From Escherichia coli (GTDB lineage: Bacteria; Pseudomonadota; Gammaproteobacteria; Enterobacterales; Enterobacteriaceae), in assembly GCF_044647545.1 (NCBI RefSeq), contig NZ_CP172818.1: a stretch of DNA of 64,000 nucleotides. One strand, written 5' to 3'. The position numbers were made by a program, and so were the translations under genes. Within the stretch, counting starts at the first letter, position 1. Each line of letters opens with the position of its first letter. Shown here piece after piece: positions 1-55,250 of this stretch. The notes beneath the pieces were generated by a model. It ran no database searches. It was given only the letters and a program-made list of their open reading frames with translations, and had not been told where the DNA came from.

Positions 1-83
1 GTAAACGATAAAGTCTCGGTAGAAGCAAAAGAGCTGATCGCAATAGGGGTTGTCAGGACTATTCCCAGAAGTTTCGCCCGCAT
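1..83 (-). CDS. ompT: Outer membrane protease OmpT, 5' fragment (start codon and signal peptide only; gene continues beyond window start)
   Basis: Reverse-complement of bases 1-83 translates MRAKLLGIVLTTPIAISSFASTETLSFT, which I recognise as the OmpT signal peptide and mature N-terminus; AT-rich upstream region follows. Confidence 0.7.
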   Translation of the reverse strand, partial: MRAKLLGIVLTTPIAISSFASTETLSF

Positions 84-507
84 AAAAGTTCTCCATTCAA
101 TCGTTTTAATGATTGAATATGTATTTTTTATATCTAACTTAATGAGTCAATTACATATTGCTCCACTGTTTATATTTTGTTTAGTATTGAATGATTATCA
201 CAATGCGCTATCTGTTTTTGGTTTAATTATCTGTTATTGTTTCATATTGCGGTTTTACTGTGTGGTTTTTTTATGCTTTTGTGGTGCTTTTATCTATTTA
301 AGTGCCATGCCTTTAGAGGCATATAAGCGAAAATAGCATGAGGTTTATCCTCAATTACTATGTTTTTTAGTACAAAAAAGAGGGACAAAACTGAGACACA
401 TAAGGCCTCACAATGGCTTGCAAGGCTTTACATGTTTTGAGGTAGTGGGACGTGTGAGCGCAGAGATGGCGCGGTAAGTTGTTGACTTAAAATGTCGTTC
501 TAGGAAC

Positions 508-551
508 TTCTAAGTCGTGGGCCGCAGGTTCGAATCCTGCAGGGCGCGCCA
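508..551 (+). pseudogene. pauD: 3' fragment of tRNA-Arg (argU-like), the DLP12 prophage right attachment-site remnant
   Basis: CTTCTAAGTCGTGGGCCGCAGGTTCGAATCCTGCAGGGCGCGCCA matches the anticodon-loop-to-3'-end portion of argU tRNA; no 5' half is present, so it is not a functional tRNA. Confidence 0.7.
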
Positions 552-595
552 TTTCTTCTTCATTTAATCCCGTCTTATCCGTTCCGCTTTGCTCT

Positions 596-1357
596 TCACC
601 ACATCACTTTTTGTCGCTGTTTGGCGAGATAATTCAACGGTGTCAGGCCGTAAAACGCCTTAAAAACAGAGATAAAGTACGACGTGCTGCTATAGCCACA
701 TAATTGCGCCACCTGAGTGATATTTTTGTTATCCATCAATAACATCTGTACGGCGTAACGCATACGACACTCTGTGACAATCTGGCTATAGCTGGTATTT
801 TCGTTTTTTAATTTCTTTTTGAGCAGGCTGGGGCTTAAACATAGCGAACTGGCGACAATTCGCAGATTCCAGTAATGCTGAATATCGCTTTGAATAATGC
901 GGCAGACGCTGTCGCGGACGCTGCTGCGTAAGATATACATCAGTAGGGCAATAAACCGCGATTGCTCAAGAAAGTTAGACAATACGGTAAAAAGCAATGC
1001 GCGCGTCAACTCCGCTTCGCAGGGTTTGCTGGGTTGCTGCTTGCTGTGGTTGGCGGCTAGCCGGAACACTTCCGGTGTACGGCTATGACAAGCGATAACC
1101 GGGGTTGCCAGCCGCGACCAGGGCTTTATACAGGTTAAGTTCTTATTTAAAAACAACAGATAATCGTTGATGATGTTACGGTTGATGTGGGTGATTAATA
1201 CGTGATTTAACGTTGAGAGTTCAATGACGTTATTGTTGCACGCGAAGGCGGCCAGGTAGTTTTTCGGAAGGGTAAACGTAGCATGGTTATTGACGCTTAC
1301 CTCTACCTCTTTTTCGGTCAGGATCACCACGCAAGGTTCACTGCTGCTCAATTGCAT
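596..1357 (-). CDS. envY: AraC-family transcriptional regulator (porin thermoregulation)
   Basis: 253-aa ORF with a C-terminal AraC-type helix-turn-helix region; sequence recognised as EnvY; position between ompT/attR and ybcH matches K-12 synteny. Confidence 0.85.
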   Translation of the reverse strand: MQLSSSEPCVVILTEKEVEVSVNNHATFTLPKNYLAAFACNNNVIELSTLNHVLITHINRNIINDYLLFLNKNLTCIKPWSRLATPVIACHSRTPEVFRLAANHSKQQPSKPCEAELTRALLFTVLSNFLEQSRFIALLMYILRSSVRDSVCRIIQSDIQHYWNLRIVASSLCLSPSLLKKKLKNENTSYSQIVTECRMRYAVQMLLMDNKNITQVAQLCGYSSTSYFISVFKAFYGLTPLNYLAKQRQKVMW

Positions 1358-1539
1358 TTCGCACTCCTCAGATATCAGAAACTCCGCTCAAAGGATCTAT
1401 GCTTCCTGCATGAGTGATCGGCCCGTTCGCCGATAACGATCTTCTTTCTTTAGCACGCTTTTTAGCAATTAATCTTGATGGAATTCTGACGAGAGCGAAA
1501 GAGGTAAGCCAGGTCGTACCCGACTTACCTGGAGGAGAT

Positions 1540-2430
1540 TTAATACTCGAGAATGCCGTGCGCGACGGGCAAATAGCGCAGAGAGAAATAGAGCGTGTCT
1601 TTACCGCAAGAGGAACGTTTCGCTAACAGCGAGGCAATTTCTGCGTCCGGTTTCGGTTTCGCTGTAAAGGTTTTGCCTTTGCCGGCGACAAACAGTTCAT
1701 AAACAATGCCGCTTGCTGGGGCGGAGCTTTGGCAATCGGCGCTGGCCTGTAGATAACGTTCACGCTGTTCAGCGGTCAGTTTATCCACGCCGCTGCCATC
1801 CTGTACCCAGACATTAACGCCGGTTGCTTTAACGTGTTCCAGCAGTTGGCGATAGCCATCGGGCGACATGTTTCCGGCGAAAAAACTACTGATATAAACC
1901 GGTTTTGCTGAAACATCGCTAATCAACCGCTGCGCGTTGTTTAACCATGTTAGCAAAGGCTGACGGGCGGCTTCGCTGCGCCAGTTCAGGTCGTCAATTT
2001 CCGCGCTGATGTACCAGCCATCCGGCGTTACGCCAGGTACGGCGCTCCATAATCTGGCTTGCTGGAGATCGGCAGCCAGCAGGCGGTTAAGATAGCTTTC
2101 CAGCGCTGCAGACGACTGTTTCTGGTGCATAAAAAATTCCGGATCGGCATTCAGCCCGACAATCAGCTTCAGGCCAGCCTGTTGCGCAGCTGCGGCACGC
2201 TTAAACAATAACGCGTGCTGTTCTGGCTGGGTGAATGCATCGCCGTAACGAGTCCATTGCAAAACCAGGGTATCGAAGCCTTGCAAACGTAACTGACTCA
2301 TCAGCCCCTGCCACTGGGTATCGGTAACCTGACTATCACGGTTTTGTGGTTGCCAGATAATACCTTTCATCGCAAAGGAAAAAGGGCTGACCAAAAGCAG
2401 TGTCAGCAATACGAAAATGAACTTACGCAT
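1540..2430 (-). CDS. ybcH: Exported protein, third gene of the nfrB-nfrA-ybcH operon
   Basis: 296-aa ORF with N-terminal signal peptide (MRKFIFVLLTLLLVSPFSFA); its start lies directly beside the nfrA stop on the same strand. Confidence 0.85.
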   Translation of the reverse strand: MRKFIFVLLTLLLVSPFSFAMKGIIWQPQNRDSQVTDTQWQGLMSQLRLQGFDTLVLQWTRYGDAFTQPEQHALLFKRAAAAQQAGLKLIVGLNADPEFFMHQKQSSAALESYLNRLLAADLQQARLWSAVPGVTPDGWYISAEIDDLNWRSEAARQPLLTWLNNAQRLISDVSAKPVYISSFFAGNMSPDGYRQLLEHVKATGVNVWVQDGSGVDKLTAEQRERYLQASADCQSSAPASGIVYELFVAGKGKTFTAKPKPDAEIASLLAKRSSCGKDTLYFSLRYLPVAHGILEY

Positions 2431-5403
2431 TTACCAGTGCACTCCAATGGTGAGAAACGCATTGTTGCGCTCTCCGTTACGTTGATTAATCGCCTTAAAG
2501 GTATGTTGATACTCGACGCCGAGACTGACTTTGTGCGGCCAGGCGTCGTAGTGCGTCTCGCCGGTCCAGATATTCCAGCGGACCCCGACACCGCCAAGCT
2601 GCGCGCCCTGAGTGCCTTTATCACGATAGCCGTTGTCCTGAACGTGAGCGTAAGGCTCAATAGTCTGTCCGTTAGCTACCTTCTGATGCCAGCTGACGCG
2701 ATAATCTGCCGTCCACGCCTGAATATCCTGGCGGATATATTGCGCTGCATCGAGGTACAGGTTTTGGGCAAACCAGCCTGAACCGTTCGGGTGCCATTCG
2801 TCGCTGTATTTGCCGCCATTAAAGAATGAGGCGCTGGCGCGCAGCATGGTATCGGATGCGCCATTTTGCCCGTTCAGCGGCAACTGCTGTTCGACGGCGA
2901 GGAAAAAGATCTGATCGCGCAGCGGCTTCCAGCGCAGACCGGTGCCGGACATCGGATTTTTCACCGGCATCATCACCCCGTTTTCTCCAGTATCGGCAAA
3001 TACACGGCTGTAAACCGAGAGCAGGTCGCCTTCCAGCAGCATATTGCGTCCGATGCGATACTCGGCTTCCAGTTGCCCGTAGCTACGATAGCTTTTCCCT
3101 GGCGCTGCGCCGCCGACATTATTGTTAGCGGTACTTATTGCGCCGGAACGCAAGCCGATAGAAGAATCGAAACTGAACGTCCAGCGGCGACCGACCTCCT
3201 CATGCAGACGGCGGAAATTGAAGCGTTGCTGATTTTGCTCTGGGGTCAGTGGGGTTATCAGCGCCTGATTATCAATGTCATCAATCACCAGCCGGGCGTA
3301 GTGCTGCGTCGCAGGCATGTCATCCAGACGCTGGTTCACGTAGGCCAGTTGTCGGATAAGTGCCGGATCGTCCGGTAGCCCTTTATGCGCCTGTTCGAGC
3401 ATTTCCCGCGACTGTGCGATATCACCGCTATCCCACAAGGCGTAACCGAGCGCTGCCTGGGTGTTGCTATTATTCGGTTCCAGTTCCAGCGCGGCGCGCA
3501 AATCACTCACCGCCGCCGGGACATTATGACGTTGGCGATAAATTGTCGCCCGCGCAACGTAAGCGTTGGCAGAAGGCGCAATATTGATTGAGCGCGTGAG
3601 ATCGTTCAGTGCGAGTTCCGGCTGACCAGGAATGTAACGTTGCGCATGCAGCCACCAGTAGAGGGCATTGTTTCCCAGCCCACGTTGTTCTGCCTGCTGA
3701 AGCCAGCGATCGCGAGCCGCACCATTTCCTGCCGCCTGGGCGGTATTGGCAGCAGCAAGCAGATCCTCATTGCTCATGTCGTGAAGACTGATTTTCTGCC
3801 AGGCCGCCAGTGCGGTGGCGTAGTCCTCAACCTGATACGCCTGATAGGCTACCGCACGATGTTGCCAGGCGTTCGGTTGTCGTTGTTCGGCCTGAAGCCA
3901 TGCATACAACGCCACACCGGGTAGCGTGTCCCGATAACACTTTGCCAGACGGTTCCAGGCGGCGGCATCGTAGGAAGGCGACATATCGCCCAGCAAGCGA
4001 ACTATTGCCGGGCAATTATCTGCAATACCCGGCAACTGACTTTGCCACTGACGTTGCTCCGCCAGCGGTAAAGGTTTCGATAAAATCGCCACCTTCGCCG
4101 GCGTTGCCAGGTAAGGATGACTTTCCAGCAGAGACGCCAGTCGCGCCATTAACGTCTGGCTGACACGCGCATCGCCCTGGAAAGGATAGCGTTGCAGCAA
4201 TAAATCGGCAGCTTCGCGTGACTGCTCGTTCTGCATCAGTTGCCAGGTCAGTTGATCCAGGCGGGTAAGATTTGCCGGTTCTTGCTGATACAGCAATCGT
4301 GCCAGACGCAGAGCTTCAGCCTTGTTATGGGTCGCTACGCTAACGGTATAACGCTCCTCAAGCATTTCATTGGCGGGGAGGGTGGCGAGCAGTTTTTGCG
4401 CTGCGTCGTACTGACCTTCTTTTAACAGCACCGGTAGCGTCGCGCCAACAACATACTGGCGGTTATCGGCAAACTGTACCGTATAATTCGCCAACGCCTG
4501 AACGGGGTTGACGCTGTATTTAGATAACAGATAGAGCCAACTTTTCTCTTGTGCGTCCGTGGTAAACAGCGGCTTATTTTCAATGAGATAATGCTGGAGG
4601 CGCGCTTTTTCGCCACGATAAGCCAGCGCGGTCGCGTAAGTAATATATGACTGAGGATCGGTGAAGATCCCCTGTGATTGCAGCGCCAGGATCCGATCAT
4701 CCAGCTGCGCGGCAAGAAGCACGTCAAACCACTGACGGCGTTCTGCCGCGCTTAATGTGTTCTGCTGGCGTGCTTCATTATATAGCGTATCTGCCTGGGA
4801 CCATTGTTTCAGGTAGATTGCGCGTTGCAGCAGATCGGTTCGCAACGTTTTTCCTTCCGGCGATGCAGCAAACGTCGCATCGTTTAGTTGCGCTCTGGCG
4901 ACAGGTAATTGTGCCAGCCGCAGGGCATTCTGCCCGACTTCACTGCGACAACGCAGGGTCGGCGCAGCGTCGCACGCTTTTTGCTGGGCAAGCAGTTCTT
5001 CAACAGTCGTAACGCTTTTCACTTCAACTGGAATAGCCGCCAGACTGCGCTCAAGTCGGGCATCTCCTGGGTGACGTTTCAGTTGATCCTCAAGCAACAG
5101 CCGCGCCCGGTCATCATGACCAAAATGGCGATAGGCTTCCGCAAGGTATAAAGTCAGCGGAATATTATCCGGCACCTGCTGGTGTATATATTCAAATTCG
5201 CGGATGGCGGTTGCTTCGTCGTTATTTTTCTGTGCCTTCAGCGCCTTGTCGAGACGGGGATAAATAACGAAATGGCGATAATCGCTCAGCCCCAGCTCTT
5301 CTGCGCTGGTGCCGATATTGTCTGCGAGTGCGCTGGTACTCAATAAAGACGTCAGCAGTAAACCAGACCATCCGATGACGCGATTAAGGTTATTCTCCTT
5401 CAT
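2431..5403 (-). CDS. nfrA: Outer-membrane phage N4 receptor subunit / polysaccharide export protein with TPR repeats
   Basis: 990-aa product starting MKENNLNRVIGWSGLLLTSLLSTSALA (signal peptide), long TPR-like N-terminal half, C-terminus ending in an aromatic residue (…GVHW) typical of outer-membrane beta-barrels. Confidence 0.9.
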   Translation of the reverse strand: MKENNLNRVIGWSGLLLTSLLSTSALADNIGTSAEELGLSDYRHFVIYPRLDKALKAQKNNDEATAIREFEYIHQQVPDNIPLTLYLAEAYRHFGHDDRARLLLEDQLKRHPGDARLERSLAAIPVEVKSVTTVEELLAQQKACDAAPTLRCRSEVGQNALRLAQLPVARAQLNDATFAASPEGKTLRTDLLQRAIYLKQWSQADTLYNEARQQNTLSAAERRQWFDVLLAAQLDDRILALQSQGIFTDPQSYITYATALAYRGEKARLQHYLIENKPLFTTDAQEKSWLYLLSKYSVNPVQALANYTVQFADNRQYVVGATLPVLLKEGQYDAAQKLLATLPANEMLEERYTVSVATHNKAEALRLARLLYQQEPANLTRLDQLTWQLMQNEQSREAADLLLQRYPFQGDARVSQTLMARLASLLESHPYLATPAKVAILSKPLPLAEQRQWQSQLPGIADNCPAIVRLLGDMSPSYDAAAWNRLAKCYRDTLPGVALYAWLQAEQRQPNAWQHRAVAYQAYQVEDYATALAAWQKISLHDMSNEDLLAAANTAQAAGNGAARDRWLQQAEQRGLGNNALYWWLHAQRYIPGQPELALNDLTRSINIAPSANAYVARATIYRQRHNVPAAVSDLRAALELEPNNSNTQAALGYALWDSGDIAQSREMLEQAHKGLPDDPALIRQLAYVNQRLDDMPATQHYARLVIDDIDNQALITPLTPEQNQQRFNFRRLHEEVGRRWTFSFDSSIGLRSGAISTANNNVGGAAPGKSYRSYGQLEAEYRIGRNMLLEGDLLSVYSRVFADTGENGVMMPVKNPMSGTGLRWKPLRDQIFFLAVEQQLPLNGQNGASDTMLRASASFFNGGKYSDEWHPNGSGWFAQNLYLDAAQYIRQDIQAWTADYRVSWHQKVANGQTIEPYAHVQDNGYRDKGTQGAQLGGVGVRWNIWTGETHYDAWPHKVSLGVEYQHTFKAINQRNGERNNAFLTIGVHW

Positions 5404-7627
5404 TTTCGGACTCCAGTTGCGCAACCTTTTCTGTGTTTAAACCTGCTTTGAGTAATAGTGATTGCATCGAAACTTGTAATTCGCGTTGAATTGTCAGAAC
5501 GCGATCCAACGTTTCCTGGCTGATAACGCCTTCGGTGACCAAAAACTTGCCGAGCGGCAGAGAACTGCGTTCATGGTGCAATAACAACACGTTAATTGCT
5601 GAACGATTAATATGACCGAGCGTGGTCAGTATTTCGGCGAACAGGAACTGATGCGGCACATATTGCCGCCAGATTTCACCGGCCTGCTGTTCCGTGAGCC
5701 ACTGATGCTGAACCGCATTGTACAACATTGCCCGCGGATCGTGACCGCGTCGGCGCGCATACCAGTGGCGTAACCCCGTGACAATTTGTCCCCGCAGAAC
5801 AATGACGTAACGCACTTTGCGTCCGACTTTACGCGTCAGGGCCGCCAGCGAAACCGGGTCAATACCATCTTCACTGCCGACAATTAACTCATCATTTTCC
5901 AGACGCAGCGGCAGCACTGCATAATGCAGCGCCACGGAGGCCGGCATCTCGGCAATCAGTGATGAAGGGATCTGCCAGGCGTCGATCGACTCCCACGCCA
6001 CGCCGTTTTGCTCTGCCAGCGCCTGTGCCAGCTGCTCGGCGCTAATCAGCCCCTGCATCAGCATTGAACCGCCAAGGCGTAGACCTTCGACGCGATTACG
6101 CAGTGCTGTATCGAGTTGTTCTTCAGTGATGACCTGATTTTCCAGCAGAATTTGACCTAACGGGCGCAACGAGCGGGTATCGCCAGTCACGCTGGGGAAG
6201 TCATGCGTTGTTTTATCCCACGCCACGCGACGTGGATCGCCGTGTTGAAGTACCTGTTTTAACGCGCGCCAGTTGGCCATGAAGTTAATCAGGTTGCCCC
6301 AGAAAAGACGCAGGACAGATAGTAGCCCCTGCGTCAGGCCGTAGTAGCCAGTGACGAAAATCACCCGCTGCACGATGCGGTTAACCATCAAGCCAAAGTT
6401 TAGCCACAGCAGGGTCATTAACCATGCGCTGCCGCTGAAAATAGAAAGGAAATGCCAGGCATCGGGCCACAAACTTTCATACGCCAGTAACAGCAAAAGC
6501 TGGATCATCACCAGCATCGCGAGGAAGCTGACAAAGTTACTGATTGCCCCTTTGCGGTCGCGCCAGAGAAAGTAGTTCAGCGTCAGGCTGGAGGTCCATT
6601 TGTGGGTTTTAAAGCCCTGGAAAACAATGCCGATGATCCAGCGAGATTTTTGTCGAACCGCCGTCGAAAAGGTATCGGGGAAATATTCGCGCACGCAGAT
6701 CATGTTTGACGTCCGCGCGTGCTGTAAAAATTTACGCTGCTCGCGTTCTTTGGCTTCGTCCACCACCGGAAAACGGACAAAAATTTCCGTCATACCTTTT
6801 TCTTTCAGGCGGAAACCAATGTCGTAATCTTCAGTAAGACTCTGCACGTCGAAAGCAATACCGTCACCGTCAGCTAACAGTGCGGTCACGGCGCGGCGGC
6901 TGAAACAAGTACCGACACCTGCGCTGGGCACCTGTCCGGCGAGGGCTTCACGCACCGGAACATCTTTGCCATGCAGTTCTGAAAACTCATCAATGTAAGT
7001 CATGCTGGTGAAGTGCGTCCATTCGCGTTCGAATGGGTATACCGGGATCTGAATCAGATCTTTACGCTCGACCAGATAGTTGAACAGACGCAATTCCATC
7101 GGTGAAATTACGTCTTCGGCGTCATGCAGAATAAAACCAGCAAAAGCGAAATTGGCGCTACGCTCAAACTGGGTGATGGCGTCCAGCACGTTGTTCAGGC
7201 AGTCGGCTTTGCTGGTGGGGCCAGGACGCGCGCAGACTACCTTATGCACGTTTGGGAAGCGAGCGCACACTTCGTCAACATCACGCTGAGTATCGGGGTC
7301 GTTGGGGTAGGTGCCAACAAAGATATGATAGTTTTCATAGTCGAGCGTGGTCGCCGCCAGCTCGGCCATATTGCCGATGACGCCCGTTTCATTCCACGCC
7401 GGAACCATAATCGCTAACGGTTTTTCATCTGGTTTATACAGTTCGCGGTAACTCATTCGCGGGTAGCGGCGATAAACACTCAACTTGCGTTTAATGCGGC
7501 GTACCCAGTAGACGACATCAATAAAAAAATCGTCCAGCCCGCTGATGAACATGATGACCGCTAACGTTATCGCGATTACTTTTAAGCCATATAGCCAGGT
7601 TGCAAAAACATCAAGAAGCCAGTCCAC
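5390..7627 (-). CDS. nfrB: Inner-membrane family-2 glycosyltransferase, phage N4 adsorption protein B (c-di-GMP-responsive)
   Basis: 745-aa ORF with N-terminal transmembrane segment, a DAED acidic motif and a QKSRW (QxxRW) motif characteristic of processive GT2 synthases; overlaps the nfrA start by 14 bp. Confidence 0.9.
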   Translation of the reverse strand: MDWLLDVFATWLYGLKVIAITLAVIMFISGLDDFFIDVVYWVRRIKRKLSVYRRYPRMSYRELYKPDEKPLAIMVPAWNETGVIGNMAELAATTLDYENYHIFVGTYPNDPDTQRDVDEVCARFPNVHKVVCARPGPTSKADCLNNVLDAITQFERSANFAFAGFILHDAEDVISPMELRLFNYLVERKDLIQIPVYPFEREWTHFTSMTYIDEFSELHGKDVPVREALAGQVPSAGVGTCFSRRAVTALLADGDGIAFDVQSLTEDYDIGFRLKEKGMTEIFVRFPVVDEAKEREQRKFLQHARTSNMICVREYFPDTFSTAVRQKSRWIIGIVFQGFKTHKWTSSLTLNYFLWRDRKGAISNFVSFLAMLVMIQLLLLLAYESLWPDAWHFLSIFSGSAWLMTLLWLNFGLMVNRIVQRVIFVTGYYGLTQGLLSVLRLFWGNLINFMANWRALKQVLQHGDPRRVAWDKTTHDFPSVTGDTRSLRPLGQILLENQVITEEQLDTALRNRVEGLRLGGSMLMQGLISAEQLAQALAEQNGVAWESIDAWQIPSSLIAEMPASVALHYAVLPLRLENDELIVGSEDGIDPVSLAALTRKVGRKVRYVIVLRGQIVTGLRHWYARRRGHDPRAMLYNAVQHQWLTEQQAGEIWRQYVPHQFLFAEILTTLGHINRSAINVLLLHHERSSLPLGKFLVTEGVISQETLDRVLTIQRELQVSMQSLLLKAGLNTEKVAQLESENEGE

Positions 7628-13036: not shown

Positions 13037-16000
13037 ATGATTGAATGGATTATTCGTCGCTCGGTGGCGAACCGTTTTCTGGTGCTGATGGGCGCGTTGT
13101 TTCTGAGCATCTGGGGCACCTGGACCATCATTAACACGCCAGTGGATGCGCTGCCGGATCTCTCTGATGTACAGGTGATTATTAAAACCAGCTATCCCGG
13201 TCAGGCACCGCAAATCGTTGAAAATCAGGTGACTTATCCGCTAACCACCACCATGTTGTCGGTACCTGGCGCGAAGACAGTGCGCGGTTTCTCGCAGTTT
13301 GGCGACTCTTATGTGTATGTCATTTTTGAAGATGGCACCGATCCGTACTGGGCGCGCTCGCGGGTGCTGGAGTACCTCAATCAGGTACAGGGGAAGCTGC
13401 CTGCGGGAGTCAGCGCCGAGCTGGGGCCAGACGCCACGGGCGTTGGCTGGATCTATGAATATGCACTGGTAGATCGCAGCGGTAAGCACGATCTGGCCGA
13501 TTTACGCTCATTGCAGGACTGGTTTCTCAAATATGAGCTAAAAACCATCCCTGACGTTGCGGAAGTGGCGTCGGTGGGCGGTGTGGTGAAAGAGTATCAG
13601 GTGGTTATCGATCCTCAGCGCCTGGCGCAGTATGGCATCAGTCTCGCCGAAGTAAAAAGCGCGCTGGATGCTTCAAACCAGGAAGCGGGCGGTTCGTCGA
13701 TCGAACTGGCGGAAGCGGAATATATGGTGCGCGCCAGCGGATATCTGCAAACGCTCGACGACTTTAATCACATCGTTTTAAAAGCCAGTGAAAATGGCGT
13801 GCCCGTTTATCTGCGTGATGTTGCGAAGGTCCAGGTTGGCCCGGAGATGCGCCGGGGCATTACCGAACTGAACGGCGAAGGCGAAGTGGCGGGCGGGGTG
13901 GTGATCCTGCGTTCCGGCAAAAACGCCCGTGAAGTGATCGCTGCCGTGAAGGACAAACTGGAAACGCTGAAAAGCAGTCTGCCGGAAGGCGTGGAGATAG
14001 TTACAACATACGATCGCAGCCAGCTCATTGACCGCGCCATTGACAACCTCAGTGGCAAGTTGCTGGAAGAGTTTATTGTGGTGGCGGTAGTCTGTGCGCT
14101 GTTTCTCTGGCATGTGCGCTCGGCGCTGGTGGCGATTATTTCGTTGCCGCTGGGGTTGTGTATTGCTTTTATTGTCATGCACTTTCAGGGACTGAACGCC
14201 AATATTATGTCGCTGGGCGGTATTGCGATTGCCGTCGGGGCGATGGTCGATGCCGCTATCGTCATGATCGAGAATGCGCATAAACGGCTGGAAGAGTGGC
14301 AGCACCAGCATCCTGACGCCACGCTGGATAATAAAACGCGCTGGCAGGTGATTACCGATGCATCTGTTGAAGTGGGGCCGGCGCTGTTTATCAGTCTGCT
14401 GATTATCACGCTGTCGTTTATCCCGATCTTCACCCTGGAAGGGCAGGAAGGTCGTCTGTTTGGCCCGCTGGCGTTCACCAAAACCTATGCGATGGCGGGC
14501 GCGGCGCTACTGGCGATCGTAGTGATCCCGATCCTGATGGGCTACTGGATCCGTGGCAAAATTCCGCCGGAAAGCAGTAACCCGCTCAATCGCTTTTTGA
14601 TTCGTGTTTATCATCCGCTGTTGCTGAAAGTACTGCACTGGCCGAAAACCACGCTGTTGGTGGCAGCGCTTTCGGTGCTGACGGTACTCTGGCCGCTCAA
14701 TAAAGTTGGCGGGGAATTTTTACCGCAGATCAATGAAGGCGACTTGTTGTATATGCCATCGACGCTGCCGGGGATTTCCGCAGCAGAGGCGGCGAGCATG
14801 CTGCAAAAAACCGACAAGCTGATTATGAGCGTACCGGAAGTGGCGCGGGTATTTGGCAAAACCGGGAAAGCGGAAACCGCCACCGATTCAGCTCCACTGG
14901 AGATGGTAGAAACGACTATCCAGCTTAAGCCACAAGATCAGTGGCGGCCAGGCATGACGATGGACAAAATCATTGAGGAACTGGATAACACCGTGCGTCT
15001 GCCGGGGCTGGCGAATCTGTGGGTGCCGCCAATTCGTAACCGTATCGATATGCTCTCGACTGGCATTAAAAGCCCTATCGGCATTAAAGTTTCCGGCACT
15101 GTGCTGGCGGATATCGACACGATGGCGGAGCAAATTGAAGAAGTGGCGCGAACGGTGCCAGGCGTAGCTTCTGCTCTTGCCGAGCGGCTGGAAGGTGGGC
15201 GCTATATCAACGTTGAGATTAACCGTGAAAAAGCCGCGCGTTACGGTATGACGGTGGCGGATGTGCAATTGTTTGTGAAATCTGCGGTGGGCGGGGCGAT
15301 GGTTGGCGAAACGGTGGAAGGGATTGCCCGTTATCCAATTAATCTGCGTTATCCGCAAAGCTGGCGCGATAGCCCGCAGGCACTGCGCCAGTTGCCGATC
15401 CTCACGCCGATGAAGCAGCAAATCACCCTGGCAGACGTGGCCGACGTTAAAGTCTCTACCGGACCGTCGATGCTGAAAACCGAGAATGCGCGCCCGACGA
15501 GCTGGATTTATATCGATGCCCGCGATCGTGACATGGTGTCGGTGGTTCACGATCTGCAAAAAGCGATAGCTGAAAAAGTGCAGTTAAAACCGGGCACCAG
15601 CGTGGCATTCTCCGGGCAGTTCGAGCTACTGGAGCGCGCCAACCATAAGCTGAAACTGATGGTGCCGATGACGCTGATGATCATCTTCGTGCTGTTGTAC
15701 CTGGCGTTCCGTCGGGTGGGCGAAGCGTTGCTGATTATCAGCAGCGTACCGTTTGCGCTGGTGGGCGGCATCTGGTTGCTGTGGTGGATGGGCTTTCATC
15801 TTTCCGTGGCGACGGGCACCGGTTTTATTGCCCTTGCCGGGGTCGCCGCCGAATTTGGCGTGGTGATGCTGATGTATTTACGTCACGCCATAGAGGCCGA
15901 GCCGTCGTTGAATAATCCGCAAACATTCAGCGAGCAGAAGCTGGATGAGGCGTTGTATCACGGCGCGGTCCTGCGCGTGCGCCCGAAAGCGATGACGGTG

Positions 16001-23039: not shown

Positions 23040-23213
23040 GTCGACCATATTAGAGACTGATGACAAACGCAAAACTGCCTGATGCGCTACGCTTATCAGG
23101 CCTACGTGGTCCTGCAATATATTGAATTGGCAAGATTTTTGTAGGCCGGATAAGGCGTTCACGCCGCATCCGGCATGAACGACGCGCACTTTGTCAACAA
23201 TCTGACGTTAGCA

Positions 23214-34147: not shown

Positions 34148-35148
34148 GCGCCACCTCGCGTTTTACGTCGCACGAGGAAGATCAGCACCGGTGCGCCAAT
34201 AAAGGCACTGACTACAGAAACGCGTAACTCGCCGGGCACAATCACCCGCCCGATGATATCGGCAAACAGCAGCAGGGCAGGGGTGGCAAGTAGCGTGACG
34301 GGCAGCGACCAGCGATGATCGGCACCTACCAGCCAGCGCGCCATATGCGGCATCATCAGGCCAATAAAGGCAATCGGGCCAACTACCGCCGTCGCACTAC
34401 CACAAAGCACGGTAATCGCCAGCAGACCAATCAACTGTGTGCGCGCCACGCGGCTGCCCAGCGCCGTCGCGGTGTCACTGCCGAGGCTTAAACTGTTCAG
34501 CGCGCGGCTCAGTAATAGCGCGGTTGCTCCGGCGATCAGCACCGGGATCAGCACAACTTTTAAGGTATATAGATTGCGAATATCCAGCGAACCGGCTTGC
34601 CAGAAACGCAGTTGATCGTAGACGTCAGGATTAAGCAGGGCGATGCCGCTGGTCAGCCCTTCCAGCACCGCCGCCAGCGCCACGCCCGCCAGGGTTAAAC
34701 GCACCGGACTTAACTGCCCGCCGCCCTGGCTGCCGGTAAAGGCAACAATCAACGAGGCCACTAGCGCCCCGGCGAAGGCCATCGCCAGTTGTTCCTGCGC
34801 GGATGAGTATCCAAACAGCGCCGCACCCAGCACAATGGCAAAGCTGGCTCCGGCGTTTACGCCAAGCAAGCCGGGGTCGGCAAGTGGGTTTCGGGTGAGG
34901 GTTTGCATCAACGCCCCGGCAAGGCCAAGCGCACCGCCGGCCAGTAAACCGGCAAGGGTGCGCGGCAGTCGTGCGTCGAGCACGATGGTGCAGTCGGCGC
35001 TCTGGCAGGTGCCGGAGAGGGCCTCCAGCACTACGGAAGCGGGGAGTGATTTTGCTCCAATGAGCAGGCTTAATGCCGTCGCGATAATCAGTAATAACAG
35101 CAATCCGGGCACGGCAATGGCGCGTGTCACGGCAACAGAACCAGACAT
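34144..35148 (-). CDS. fepD: Ferric enterobactin ABC transporter permease
   Basis: Start chosen at MSGSVAVTRAIAVPGLLLLL… (about 334 aa); FecCD-family permease. Confidence 0.9.
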   Translation of the reverse strand: MSGSVAVTRAIAVPGLLLLLIIATALSLLIGAKSLPASVVLEALSGTCQSADCTIVLDARLPRTLAGLLAGGALGLAGALMQTLTRNPLADPGLLGVNAGASFAIVLGAALFGYSSAQEQLAMAFAGALVASLIVAFTGSQGGGQLSPVRLTLAGVALAAVLEGLTSGIALLNPDVYDQLRFWQAGSLDIRNLYTLKVVLIPVLIAGATALLLSRALNSLSLGSDTATALGSRVARTQLIGLLAITVLCGSATAVVGPIAFIGLMMPHMARWLVGADHRWSLPVTLLATPALLLFADIIGRVIVPGELRVSVVSAFIGAPVLIFLVRRKTRGGA

Positions 35149-37469: not shown

Positions 37470-37607
37470 AAATTAGCTTCCTGTTATTAATAGAGTTAAT
37501 GCTTCTCATTTTCATTGTAACCACAAACAGATGCAACCCCGAGTTGCAGATTGCGTTACCTCAAGAGTTGACATAGTGCGCGTTTGCTTTTAGGTTAGCG
37601 ACCGAAA

Positions 37608-42666: not shown

Positions 42667-44772
42667 ATGAACAAATCAGGGAAATACCTCGTCTGGACAG
42701 TGCTCTCTGTAATGGGAGCATTTGCTCTGGGATACATTGCTTTAAATCGTGGGGAACAGATCAACGCGCTGTGGATTGTGGTGGCGTCGGTCTGTATCTA
42801 TCTGATCGCTTACCGTTTTTATGGGTTGTATATCGCCAAAAATGTGCTGGCGGTTGACCCGACGCGTATGACGCCAGCGGTGCGCCATAACGACGGGCTG
42901 GACTATGTGCCGACGGACAAGAAAGTGCTGTTCGGTCACCATTTTGCGGCCATTGCCGGAGCTGGCCCGCTGGTGGGGCCGGTACTGGCGGCGCAAATGG
43001 GTTACCTGCCAGGGATGATCTGGCTGCTCGCCGGGGTGGTTCTCGCCGGTGCGGTGCAGGATTTCATGGTGCTGTTTGTTTCTACGCGCCGTGACGGTCG
43101 CTCGCTGGGTGAGCTGGTCAAAGAAGAGATGGGGCCAACCGCCGGGGTGATAGCGCTGGTGGCCTGCTTTATGATCATGGTCATTATCCTTGCCGTGCTG
43201 GCGATGATCGTGGTGAAAGCCCTGACTCATAGCCCGTGGGGAACGTATACCGTTGCGTTCACCATTCCGCTGGCGCTGTTTATGGGGATCTACCTGCGCT
43301 ATTTGCGTCCGGGGCGTATTGGCGAAGTGTCGGTGATTGGTCTGGTGTTCCTGATTTTCGCCATTATCTCTGGCGGCTGGGTGGCAGAAAGCCCGACCTG
43401 GGCACCGTACTTTGACTTTACCGGCGTGCAGCTGACCTGGATGCTGGTGGGCTACGGTTTTGTGGCGGCGGTGCTGCCGGTGTGGTTGCTGCTGGCCCCG
43501 CGCGACTACCTCTCAACCTTCCTGAAAATCGGGACTATCGTCGGTCTGGCGGTAGGCATTCTGATTATGCGCCCGACGCTGACCATGCCTGCGCTAACTA
43601 AATTTGTCGATGGCACTGGCCCGGTATGGACCGGTAACCTGTTCCCGTTCCTGTTTATCACCATCGCCTGTGGCGCGGTGTCTGGCTTCCATGCACTGAT
43701 CTCTTCCGGCACTACACCGAAGATGCTGGCGAACGAAGGGCAGGCGTGCTTTATCGGCTACGGTGGGATGTTGATGGAATCCTTCGTGGCGATTATGGCG
43801 CTGGTTTCCGCCTGTATCATCGATCCGGGTGTGTACTTCGCCATGAACAGCCCGATGGCGGTGCTGGCTCCGGCAGGGACGGCGGATGTGGTTGCTTCTG
43901 CCGCGCAGGTGGTGAGTAGCTGGGGCTTTGCGATTACCCCGGATACGCTAAACCAGATTGCCAGCGAAGTGGGTGAACAGTCGATCATTTCCCGTGCGGG
44001 CGGTGCGCCGACCCTGGCGGTGGGGATGGCCTACATTCTGCACGGTGCGCTGGGCGGCATGATGGATGTGGCGTTCTGGTATCACTTCGCCATTCTGTTT
44101 GAAGCACTGTTTATTCTGACGGCGGTGGATGCAGGTACGCGTGCTGCGCGCTTTATGTTGCAGGATCTGCTGGGCGTGGTGTCTCCGGGCCTGAAACGGA
44201 CCGATTCACTGCCTGCTAACCTGCTGGCAACGGCGCTGTGCGTACTGGCGTGGGGCTACTTCCTCCATCAGGGCGTGGTCGATCCGCTGGGCGGTATTAA
44301 CACTCTGTGGCCGCTGTTTGGTATTGCCAACCAGATGCTGGCAGGGATGGCGCTGATGCTCTGTGCTGTGGTGCTGTTCAAAATGAAACGTCAACGTTAC
44401 GCCTGGGTGGCGCTGGTACCAACGGCCTGGCTGCTGATTTGTACCCTGACCGCAGGCTGGCAGAAAGCGTTTAGCCTGGATGCAAAAGTCGGCTTCCTGG
44501 CGATTGCTAACAAGTTCCAGGCAATGATCGACAGCGGCAATATTCCGTCGCAGTATACCGAGTCACAGCTGGCGCAACTGGTGTTCAACAACCGTCTGGA
44601 TGCCGGGTTAACCATCTTCTTTATGGTGGTCGTGGTGGTTCTGGCACTGTTCTCGATTAAGACGGCACTGGCGGCATTGAAAGAGCCGAAGCCAACGGCG
44701 AAAGAAACGCCGTATGAGCCGATGCCGGAAAATGTCGAGGAGATCGTGGCGCAGGCAAAAGGCGCGCACTAA
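42667..44772 (+). CDS. cstA: Carbon starvation protein A, CstA-family peptide/pyruvate transporter
   Basis: 701-aa polytopic membrane protein recognised as CstA. Confidence 0.93.
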   Translation: MNKSGKYLVWTVLSVMGAFALGYIALNRGEQINALWIVVASVCIYLIAYRFYGLYIAKNVLAVDPTRMTPAVRHNDGLDYVPTDKKVLFGHHFAAIAGAGPLVGPVLAAQMGYLPGMIWLLAGVVLAGAVQDFMVLFVSTRRDGRSLGELVKEEMGPTAGVIALVACFMIMVIILAVLAMIVVKALTHSPWGTYTVAFTIPLALFMGIYLRYLRPGRIGEVSVIGLVFLIFAIISGGWVAESPTWAPYFDFTGVQLTWMLVGYGFVAAVLPVWLLLAPRDYLSTFLKIGTIVGLAVGILIMRPTLTMPALTKFVDGTGPVWTGNLFPFLFITIACGAVSGFHALISSGTTPKMLANEGQACFIGYGGMLMESFVAIMALVSACIIDPGVYFAMNSPMAVLAPAGTADVVASAAQVVSSWGFAITPDTLNQIASEVGEQSIISRAGGAPTLAVGMAYILHGALGGMMDVAFWYHFAILFEALFILTAVDAGTRAARFMLQDLLGVVSPGLKRTDSLPANLLATALCVLAWGYFLHQGVVDPLGGINTLWPLFGIANQMLAGMALMLCAVVLFKMKRQRYAWVALVPTAWLLICTLTAGWQKAFSLDAKVGFLAIANKFQAMIDSGNIPSQYTESQLAQLVFNNRLDAGLTIFFMVVVVVLALFSIKTALAALKEPKPTAKETPYEPMPENVEEIVAQAKGAH

Positions 44773-44777
44773 AGTCA

Positions 44778-44870
44778 GAGTGAGGGGGGATGTTGGCGAA
44801 TGTTGGCATGGTGCCGAGGGTTCCCCCTCACCCTAACCCTCTCTCCTGTGGGGCGAGGGGACTGACCGAG
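44778..44870. repeat. GC-rich structured inverted-repeat element in the cstA-ybdD spacer
   Basis: GTGAGGGGGGA (about 44780-44790) pairs with TCCCCCTCAC (about 44822-44831) across a loop containing the tandem ATGTTGGC…ATGTTGGC, followed by a CCCTAACCCTCTCTCC…GGGGCGAGGGGA tract. Confidence 0.4.
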
Positions 44871-44915
44871 CGCGTTGATAGCACCCTCTCAGCAACCTGT
44901 TTACCGGAGGTTTAG

Positions 44916-45113
44916 ATGTTTGATTCACTGGCAAAAGCCGGAAAATATTTAGGTCAGGCGGCGAAACTGATGATTGGTATGCCTGATTACGACAACTATG
45001 TCGAACATATGCGGGTTAACCATCCCGATCAAACGCCGATGACCTACGAAGAGTTTTTCCGTGAGCGGCAGGACGCGCGCTACGGTGGAAAAGGCGGCGC
45101 GCGCTGCTGCTAA
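44916..45113 (+). CDS. ybdD: Small conserved protein paired with cstA (DUF466-like)
   Basis: 65-aa [61 protein letters not shown]… recognised as YbdD. Confidence 0.8.
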
Positions 45114-45122
45114 ATCTGTACG

Positions 45123-46211
45123 TCAGGCTTTAAACGATTCCACTTTTTCGAACGCTGCACGCAACGTATCCGGTGTCAGCGTGACCGGCAGGTAATGAAT
45201 GGATTCCACCGGACGTAAGGTGTGGGCAATCACTTTGTCGATCTCCGCCTGATTATTGATATCCACTTCCAGCTCCGCCAGCGTAGTCGGCAGATGAAAA
45301 CGCTGATACGCTCCAGTTAATTGCGCCAGCACATCATCCTGACCCAGCAAGGCGCTTTGCACCAGAATTCCGTAGGCGACTTTGGTGCCGTGGAGAAACT
45401 TCTCGGTTTGCGGCAGCACGGTCAGACCGTTATGCACGGCATGAGCTGCCGCCACACGCGTAAAACGATCGCCCAGACCACCAACCATCCCACCACCAGC
45501 AATAATGGCATCCACCACATCGCAAAATGATTGCGTTAACTGGTGATTTTGCTGATCGCTCAGCGCCTGTTCGCTACTGTTTAACAAGACGTCGCGAATG
45601 GCCTGCGCATTATTGATCCCCAGTCGCACGGTTAGCGGCAACGTTTCTGGTTGCGGGGCCAGCACCACCGCTTCATACCATTTCGCCAGCGTGTCACCGA
45701 TCCCCGCCAGCAGATATTGTTGCGGCGCGTTGAGGATAATCTCCGGTTCCACCAGCACCATAAAATTGGCGTCGTCGAAAATCTCATAATGCAGCGCCTG
45801 TCCGGCATCGTTATACCAGACAGAGAGCGGTGTCCAGGCGGCGCAGGTAGCGGCGATCGTCGGAACGGCAACAAATGGCAGACCGAGACGGCGGGCGAGG
45901 GCTTTCGCGGTGTCGAGCAGTGCGCCGCCGCCGACGCCAATCACCACGTTGCGATCGTCAGCGGATTCAGCCGCCAGTTGCTGTACATCGCTTTCGCTGC
46001 AATGACCACGAAACAAAATATGCTTTGCCCCTGGCAGTTCAAACGCTGGCGGCAGTTTGGTTTGCGCCGCAGCAATGGCGCGTTCGCCGTAGATCCACAC
46101 CGCGCGAGAAAGCTGTTCATCAGTGAAAAAATCGTGCAGGTGATTGAAACTTCCTGGATGTGAAAAGTAGTTAGCCGGGCCGACGACCACGCGGATAGGA
46201 TTGTGAGGCAT
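45123..46211 (-). CDS. ybdH: Iron-containing alcohol dehydrogenase family protein (hydroxycarboxylate dehydrogenase)
   Basis: 362-aa ORF with glycerol-dehydrogenase-like fold features (GGGSxxD-type region VIGVGGGALLDTAK). Confidence 0.88.
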   Translation of the reverse strand: MPHNPIRVVVGPANYFSHPGSFNHLHDFFTDEQLSRAVWIYGERAIAAAQTKLPPAFELPGAKHILFRGHCSESDVQQLAAESADDRNVVIGVGGGALLDTAKALARRLGLPFVAVPTIAATCAAWTPLSVWYNDAGQALHYEIFDDANFMVLVEPEIILNAPQQYLLAGIGDTLAKWYEAVVLAPQPETLPLTVRLGINNAQAIRDVLLNSSEQALSDQQNHQLTQSFCDVVDAIIAGGGMVGGLGDRFTRVAAAHAVHNGLTVLPQTEKFLHGTKVAYGILVQSALLGQDDVLAQLTGAYQRFHLPTTLAELEVDINNQAEIDKVIAHTLRPVESIHYLPVTLTPDTLRAAFEKVESFKA

Positions 46212-55214: not shown

Positions 55215-55250
55215 CAAAAGAAAACCCTCACCGTCAGGCGGCGAGGGTTT
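55215..55250 (-). terminator. Hairpin terminator between rna and rnk (minus strand)
   Basis: AACCCTCACCG…CGGCGAGGGTT inverted repeat; on the minus-strand transcript it is followed by UUUUCUUUUGGG. Confidence 0.5.

Follow-up and report, generated by a model that had tools for sequence, protein, structure and literature searches.

The window, by which we mean the whole 64,000-nt stretch of Escherichia coli DNA analysed here, carries cstA and ybdD on the plus strand, separated by a spacer of 143 nt from stop codon to start codon (44773-44915), the length already given in an earlier note on this DNA; cstA ends at 44772 and the ATG of ybdD begins at 44916 (Table 1). The cstA-ybdD region is 100% identical to that of E. 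coli FDAARGOS_497. Downstream, ybdD (+) and hcxA (-) converge at 45113-45123 with 9 nt between their stop codons, and at the other end of the window (1-7026) genes for an Rhs core-domain protein, a DcrB-related protein and VgrG (type VI secretion) adjoin cusS.

The spacer contains a GC-rich inverted repeat, which the earlier note had described as 10 bp long with CCCCCCTCAC as its right arm. The repeat is present, but its perfect part is 9 bp long (GTGAGGGGG/CCCCCTCAC, the latter at 44823), and in the motif check of the window CCCCCCTCAC was absent, the sequence at that place being TTCCCCCTCAC. The arms extend to 15 nt (44774-44788 and 44823-44837) with 87% complementarity, and each 9-mer of the inverted repeat occurs once in the 64-kb window. 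The motifs GTGAGGGGGG at 44780, ATGTTGGC at 44790 and 44800, CCCTAACCCTCTCTCC at 44831 and GGGGCGAGGGGA at 44850 were located, all the other motifs that had been named being found where they had been placed, and the repeated ATGTTGGC is a real 10-nt tandem duplication, present as a single copy in E. coli MS1266 and Nord1. Structure prediction, one of the checks first suggested, gave a stable fold for the 97-nt element 44774-44870 (-49.8 kcal/mol on the plus strand, z = -2.9 against dinucleotide shuffles), with z = -3.3 (plus strand) and z = -4.9 (minus strand) for the first hairpin (44774-44837). The full 143-nt spacer gave a z of merely -1.2 to -1.4, a modest value because shuffled GC-rich sequence of this kind folds well too. 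Both the inverted repeat and the element are beyond chance. A 41-codon open reading frame at 44790-44915 was considered as a gene and dismissed, being broken by the indels that separate the spacer alleles described below.

Table 1 Features of the cstA-ybdD spacer and its borders in the window
Feature	Position	Strand	Basis or remark
cstA stop codon	44770..44772	+	upstream boundary of the spacer
Left arm of the palindrome, GTCAGAGTGAGGGGGG	44774..44790	+	inverted repeat, folds, Escherichia alignment
10-nt tandem duplication in the hairpin loop, ATGTTGGCGA-ATGTTGGC	44790..44807	+	motif positions; single-copy alleles of MS1266 and Nord1
Full BoxC unit: 5' flank GCGCTCGGTCAGTC, triplex-motif core, 3' flank GAACCCTCGGCAC	44811..44873	-	nhmmer, flank conservation, secondary blastn places
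TMECO/PIT core, type A (TTA loop), degenerate: CCCTCGCCC-CACAG-GAGAGAGGG-TTA-GGGTGAGGG-G	44825..44860	-	Holder 2015 consensus
Equivalent of K-12 RNA 3' end 632098	44870	+	coordinate transfer; inferred for the window strain from K-12
GCA junction of the 38-nt deletion that removed a REP	44881..44883	+	alignments
ybdD Shine-Dalgarno GGAGG (44906-44910) and ATG	44906..44918	+	outside the element

The tract CCCTAACCC.../GGGGCGAGGG and the right arm of the inverted repeat form one repeat unit, a point missed at first. This unit is a complete, slightly decayed copy of BoxC on the minus strand: a profile built from seven K-12 copies at other loci matched 44811-44873(-) in an nhmmer search with 47.6 bits (E = 6.4e-14, nodes 3-65 of 67), which bears out the suggestion that the element is a member of one of the small repeat families dispersed between enterobacterial genes; the family is BoxC (PIT, TMECO, HPG1). 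The name BoxC reportedly goes back to Bachellier et al., and the PIT elements are said to come from work of Hoyne/Maher in 2000. TMECO, BoxC and PIT elements are the same motif according to Holder 2015 (PMC4666352), with the TMECO consensus CCCTCNCCC N3-6 GGGNGAGGG N3 GGGNGAGGG, while HPG1 and HPG2 are names given to BoxC as a G-quadruplex-hairpin motif (Kaplan 2016, PMC5100583). In the seven K-12 copies that were fetched, the unit extends past the core into a 5' flank, GCGCAC.GAACGGTC, and a 3' flank, GAAC...GCAC, and the window copy shows the same order of parts (5' flank GCGC.C...GTC, CCCTCGCCCC, loop, G-block, TTA, GGGTGAGGGG, 3' flank GAAC...GCAC). Like the family, which is intergenic, multi-copy and often adjoins an inverted partner, it lies between genes; it differs in that its partner is reduced to a 17-nt arm and in that its middle G-block reads GAG, against GGG in the consensus. 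The second loop is of type A (GAGAGAGGG-TTA-GGGTGAGGG). The strict TMECO pattern does not match the window copy (middle block GAGAGAGGG, one mismatch in the two-block pattern); the K-12 orthologue departs from it at the third block instead (GGGTGAGAG, GAGAG), and because a different block is broken there it is missing from Holder's 23 K-12 copies. It is catalogued as HPG1 no. 19 (cstA >>> / 51 / 632058 / - / 108 / >>> ybdD; Kaplan 2016 Table 1, PMC5100583). The repeat family and the cstA-ybdD site are both already in the literature, and the element is ordinary, not new.

Counting dispersed copies by blastn of the spacer, another of the checks suggested at the outset, showed that 4824 of 5426 complete E. 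coli genomes hold similar sequence, with a median of 9 places per genome and 4 places in FDAARGOS_497, place counts that at E ≤ 1e-5 are undercounts; the secondary places cover 44821-44877. Within the window no second BoxC copy was found, the profile giving no further match, and the weak matches at 55223-55247, 14426-14444 and 34890-34903 (E = 0.6-4) were treated as chance. The highest-scoring Rfam matches, to eukaryotic miRNA models, reached 13-26 bits where the gathering thresholds are 60-95 bits. The possibility that the 3' codons of cstA (GCGCAC) derive from the BoxC 5' flank was ruled out: the C-terminus of CstA (...AKGAH*) carries a tail (…A-K/R-x-A/V-H*) conserved in 77/77 species examined, with or without BoxC, and is ancestral, not repeat-derived.

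The element has two parts, the BoxC copy and an older palindrome upstream of it. Pairing joins the left arm to 44823-44837, the inner end of the BoxC copy, and GTCAG to CTGAC at 44862-44866. This arm was found at each of the four further loci recovered from the genus Escherichia (E. albertii, E. whittamii, Escherichia sp. MOD1 and one labelled E. coli), and the palindrome GTCAGAGTGAGGGGGG-loop-CCCCTCACTCT occurs in E. albertii, in E. whittamii, in an Escherichia sp. and in several lineages of E. coli lacking the BoxC body. The K-12 fepB-entC spacer holds a head-to-head BoxC pair that aligns to window 44776-44877 (75% over 105 nt), the alignment running through the inter-copy spacer into the partner copy; at the level of sequence similarity it is suggestive that the palindrome may be the remnant of a BoxC pair, the left arm being the inner end of a lost, inverted second copy. 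Inverted pairing of BoxC is found at 5/18 K-12 sites. The profile found no separate plus-strand BoxC copy at the left arm. In the window strain, the fepB-entC spacer (37497-37499) is without the 183-nt K-12 segment (about 624541-624723) that holds the head-to-head pair, its flanks meeting in a clean junction with 3 nt of overlap.

The spacer varies greatly from one E. coli strain to another, which the earlier note had missed. The K-12 type, with BoxC and REP, is carried by 3699/5426 complete genomes, and K-12 and most E. coli have a true REP 20 nt further downstream in the same spacer; 1187 genomes are of the ATCC 25922 type, with the palindrome and a GCCCTC...GAGGGC hairpin and with neither BoxC body nor REP, and 343 have BoxC without REP, with the junction of the window. 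The REP is present at the deleted position in K-12 and in all other Escherichia species examined; the allele of the window is therefore derived, by loss of 38 nt between GCA repeats. The element itself does not agree with the REP consensus (GCCGGATG...CCGGC palindrome), and the sole REP match in the window, at 23141-23174 (-), is a perfect consensus copy between entD and fepA, in the spacer with the strongest fold z-score (-5.6) among the same-direction spacers of the window. The second hairpin of the ATCC 25922 type (GCCCTCTTAATTCAGGAGGGC, followed by ATTTGTA, in the place where other E. coli have the REP) looks homologous to the Citrobacter/Salmonella hairpin (GCCCTCTCC..GGGGAGGGCGTTTGTA). 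In strain TC24, 6 nt of the BoxC core have been lost. This variability fits the report that spots carrying the motif are highly variable locally and unstable (Holder 2015, PMC4666352).

Such turnover is what a neutral or selfish repeat would show, with BoxC and REPs accumulating and decaying in permissive spacers at gene 3' ends and any RNA 3' ends arising as by-products of stable hairpins. At least seven spacer alleles exist in E. coli, in which the BoxC body, the REP, the 6-nt piece of the core and the 10-nt duplication have been gained or lost; the core has decayed differently in the window strain (GAG) and in K-12 (GAGAG); the window strain has lost the entire fepB-entC pair; and high local variability without known function has been reported for the family (Holder 2015, PMC4666352). 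Additionally, no pair of the palindrome was altered on both sides among 12 Escherichia alleles, in an alignment that slips register; the comparison is uninformative taken alone, and the lack of compensatory changes within Escherichia counts, if at all, for a neutral repeat and against a role in RNA. At the same time, every E. coli allele examined keeps the palindrome together with a second hairpin, be it BoxC, REP or the ancestral one, which does not favour neutrality. We consider the neutral reading rather unlikely, although a serious competitor, and the comparison across species weighs against it.

The ybdD locus was recovered from 80 species genomes, with cstA upstream in 77. The usual spacer is 47-63 nt long and holds a single GC hairpin. 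In 74 of the 77 species it measures at least 40 nt, and all 74 spacers fold at -15 kcal/mol or better, with z below -2 in 93% of them (median -4.2), a proportion that overstates the number of independent cases, the 77 spacers being related by descent; the three remaining species have a spacer of 14-20 nt and no hairpin. Among the other same-direction spacers of the window, z is below -2 in only 6/17, so that about a third of these controls are comparably structured. The hairpins are built from unrelated sequences, namely BoxC pairs, REP-like elements and simple hairpins. BoxC occurs in this spacer in Enterobacter, Leclercia, Lelliottia, Pluralibacter, Phytobacter, Pseudocitrobacter and Escherichia, as full inverted pairs in several (not all) Enterobacter species, Leclercia, Lelliottia, Pluralibacter and Phytobacter, and as two tandem BoxC-like units in two Pseudocitrobacter species; a REP-like palindrome is found in several Enterobacter, Lelliottia and related genomes, CCCTCTCC-loop-GGAGAGGG often in Citrobacter, Salmonella and Kosakonia, and terminator-like hairpins in Atlantibacter and Buttiauxella. 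The spacer of the paralogous K-12 pair btsT-yjiX also has a GC hairpin followed by a T-rich run; on the minus strand it reads AGCCCCGC-TTCG-GCGGGGCT, then TTTGTTCTTAT, and looks like a weak intrinsic terminator. A strong hairpin kept in 74/77 species though the sequences that form it have been replaced speaks against neutrality and for a role in RNA. The absence of the BoxC body from the 1187 genomes and of any hairpin from the three species counts against a role in RNA, and means that BoxC itself is dispensable.

The 3'-end mapping that the earlier note had suggested exists in published form. Term-seq of K-12 grown in LB to OD 2.0 placed a plus-strand RNA 3' end at 632098 (Adams 2021, supplementary file 1). 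Checked against the sequence, this position is the last letter of GGGGACTGACCGA-G, corresponds to window 44870 and lies 11 nt beyond the BoxC core and hairpin; the window is identical to K-12 from the end of the core (GGGGCGAGGGGA...) to 10 nt beyond this position. The end has a low read count (1686) and was seen in one of three growth conditions (Adams 2021). In the same data, 3' ends lie 3-12 nt past four other BoxC copies, at 624567(-), 3781065(+), 4231270(-) and 164636(+), and at all five the RNA carries BoxC in the C-rich-first orientation, with none in the opposite one, in a small sample of 5 vs 0. The highly expressed adk transcript reads through a BoxC copy of the opposite orientation, the real terminator being just beyond. 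The orientation of BoxC relative to the nearest incoming gene shows no clear bias (about 9 vs 6 in a hand count of Kaplan 2016 Table 1), and the BoxC papers cited here do not connect the repeat with RNA 3' ends. A very strong 3' end in the fepB leader, at 624680 (-) in K-12 (103,563 and 243,213 reads; Adams 2021), sits exactly at the upstream edge of a sense-oriented BoxC copy, while the other five are downstream of complement-oriented copies. The filter applied by Adams 2021 to 3' ends upstream of open reading frames implies a transcription start at most 200 nt upstream of 632098; therefore, the RNA ending there may not be cstA mRNA. The implied start region is K-12 631898-632078, roughly window 44670-44850, in the cstA 3' end or the spacer.

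The position of this end just past the hairpin could also point to a partial terminator or attenuator, either setting the cstA:ybdD ratio on the plus strand or stopping antisense read-through from the convergent hcxA on the minus strand. For the minus strand, opposite the 3' end of cstA, Adams 2021 reported a Rho termination region at 631994(-) (Rho score 4.5, p = 8e-6), across which reads fall from 78 to 10, but the Rho score spans 800-nt windows and therefore cannot pin termination to the element. Of the two strands, the minus strand gives the more significant hairpin (z = -4.9), with CUUUAGUG after it, and ybdD-hcxA is listed as a convergent excludon, that is, an overlapping-transcript pair, by ExcludonFinder. 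As with intrinsic terminators, defined by a GC stem, a loop of 3-8 nt and then a U-run, a GC-rich hairpin follows the stop codon, and T-runs follow the orthologous or paralogous hairpins in Atlantibacter, Kosakonia, Buttiauxella and btsT-yjiX. The element differs from them in having loops of more than 8 nt and, on the plus strand, no U-tract after the hairpin, because of which the structure is most likely no terminator. A scan of 44400-45400 found no terminator-like or promoter-like site on either strand; since no promoter was found in the spacer, ybdD needs read-through. Moreover, PIT elements in reporters had, in earlier work, neither promoter nor terminator activity and no effect in vivo (per Holder 2015, PMC4666352). 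Constitutive pyruvate uptake requires cstA as well as ybdD, so read-through must occur, and this joint need argues against a strong terminator between them. Taken together, termination or attenuation at the element appears improbable.

An action at the level of DNA, in which the G-rich minus strand would form a triplex or G-quadruplex that stalls replication or recombination or serves as a regulatory switch, is very improbable at this site. Oligonucleotides of the family consensus do form triplexes in vitro (CD, NMR; Holder 2015, PMC4666352) and G-quadruplex or hairpin states (CD, in vitro; Kaplan 2016, PMC5100583), and variability at the locus is unusually high, in line with what Holder 2015 describes for such motifs. 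However, a G-block is broken here (GAGAGAGGG), a different block is broken in K-12 and part of the core is lost in TC24; therefore, the three-block motif is not being preserved at the site, and the broken G-block of the window variant predicts, as far as its letters can tell, weaker triplex or G-quadruplex formation. In vivo DMS footprinting lent no support to a stable triplex, and no triplex signal came from duplex DNA (Holder 2015, PMC4666352). The five mapped RNA ends are all found downstream of the hairpin and not at its entry.

Control of ybdD translation, through coupling to cstA as the earlier note had proposed or through masking of the Shine-Dalgarno sequence, is hardly credible. In the minimum-energy fold, AACCU and AGGUU form a 5-bp helix across the Shine-Dalgarno sequence, but this helix lies outside the element, and K-12 has AACAUG...GGAGGCC there. 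Coupling is unsupported across the 143 nt between the cstA stop and the ybdD start, given that ybdD has its own GGAGG, which begins 36 nt after the end of the element. Alleles that carry BoxC and alleles that lack it both have an intact Shine-Dalgarno sequence, GGAG(G/T) before the ATG being kept in 12/12 aligned Escherichia spacers whether or not the BoxC body is present.

We are thus left leaning, by a small measure, to the reading that the BoxC copy in the cstA-ybdD spacer acts, if at all, as a REP-like exonuclease barrier. In the mechanism that we infer, the cstA-ybdD transcript would carry the complement of BoxC, C-rich first, and the region would fold into two hairpins closed by GUCAG/CUGAC. 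This structure would probably block 3'-to-5' exonucleases, so that a stable RNA of cstA alone would remain, with its 3' end at window 44870, about 11 nt beyond the hairpin, while the read-through RNA would still carry ybdD, translated from its own Shine-Dalgarno sequence, so that the structure would work like a REP mRNA stabiliser between two cistrons. The role in mRNA processing or stability that the earlier note had considered thus receives indirect support, from the K-12 end at 632098. In E. coli, steady-state 3' ends lie just past stable stem-loops that have no U-tracts and that shield RNA from PNPase and RNase II (Dar and Sorek 2018, PMC6061677); the cstA-ybdD hairpin resembles these in its stability, in having no U-tract and in the precise steady-state 3' end that follows it within a few nucleotides, and differs from the protective stem-loops of Rho-dependent transcripts in lying inside an operon whose downstream gene is needed. 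With the REP/BIME stabilisers, of which that of malE-malF is the example (Newbury 1987, as cited in Dar and Sorek 2018, PMC6061677), the element shares its nature as a GC-rich palindromic dispersed repeat in an intercistronic spacer and the 3' end mapped in K-12 just past a stem that has no U-tract; in contrast, BoxC is another sequence family, the window allele has no REP in the spacer, and a stabilising effect of BoxC would follow by analogy.

A broader and more doubtful idea, even less probable than the neutral one, is that BoxC is an orientation-dependent determinant of RNA 3' ends and that the spacer is selected for any strong hairpin, BoxC pairs, REPs and CCCTCTCC/GGAGAGGG hairpins being interchangeable, in which case BoxC might spread onto or from older hairpins. 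If this were true, such spread could explain why BoxC recurs, in differing arrangements, in the cstA-ybdD spacer of the seven genera named above.

As found, the element matters little, being one more copy of a catalogued repeat. What deserves attention is that across the Enterobacteriaceae the cstA-ybdD spacer has kept a strong hairpin while the sequence forming it was repeatedly swapped, which makes the spacer a convenient natural experiment on whether hairpins between cistrons adjust the proportion of a transporter to its small partner protein. Moreover, the 3' ends past five BoxC copies would give a testable function to a repeat that has been without one for about 30 years.
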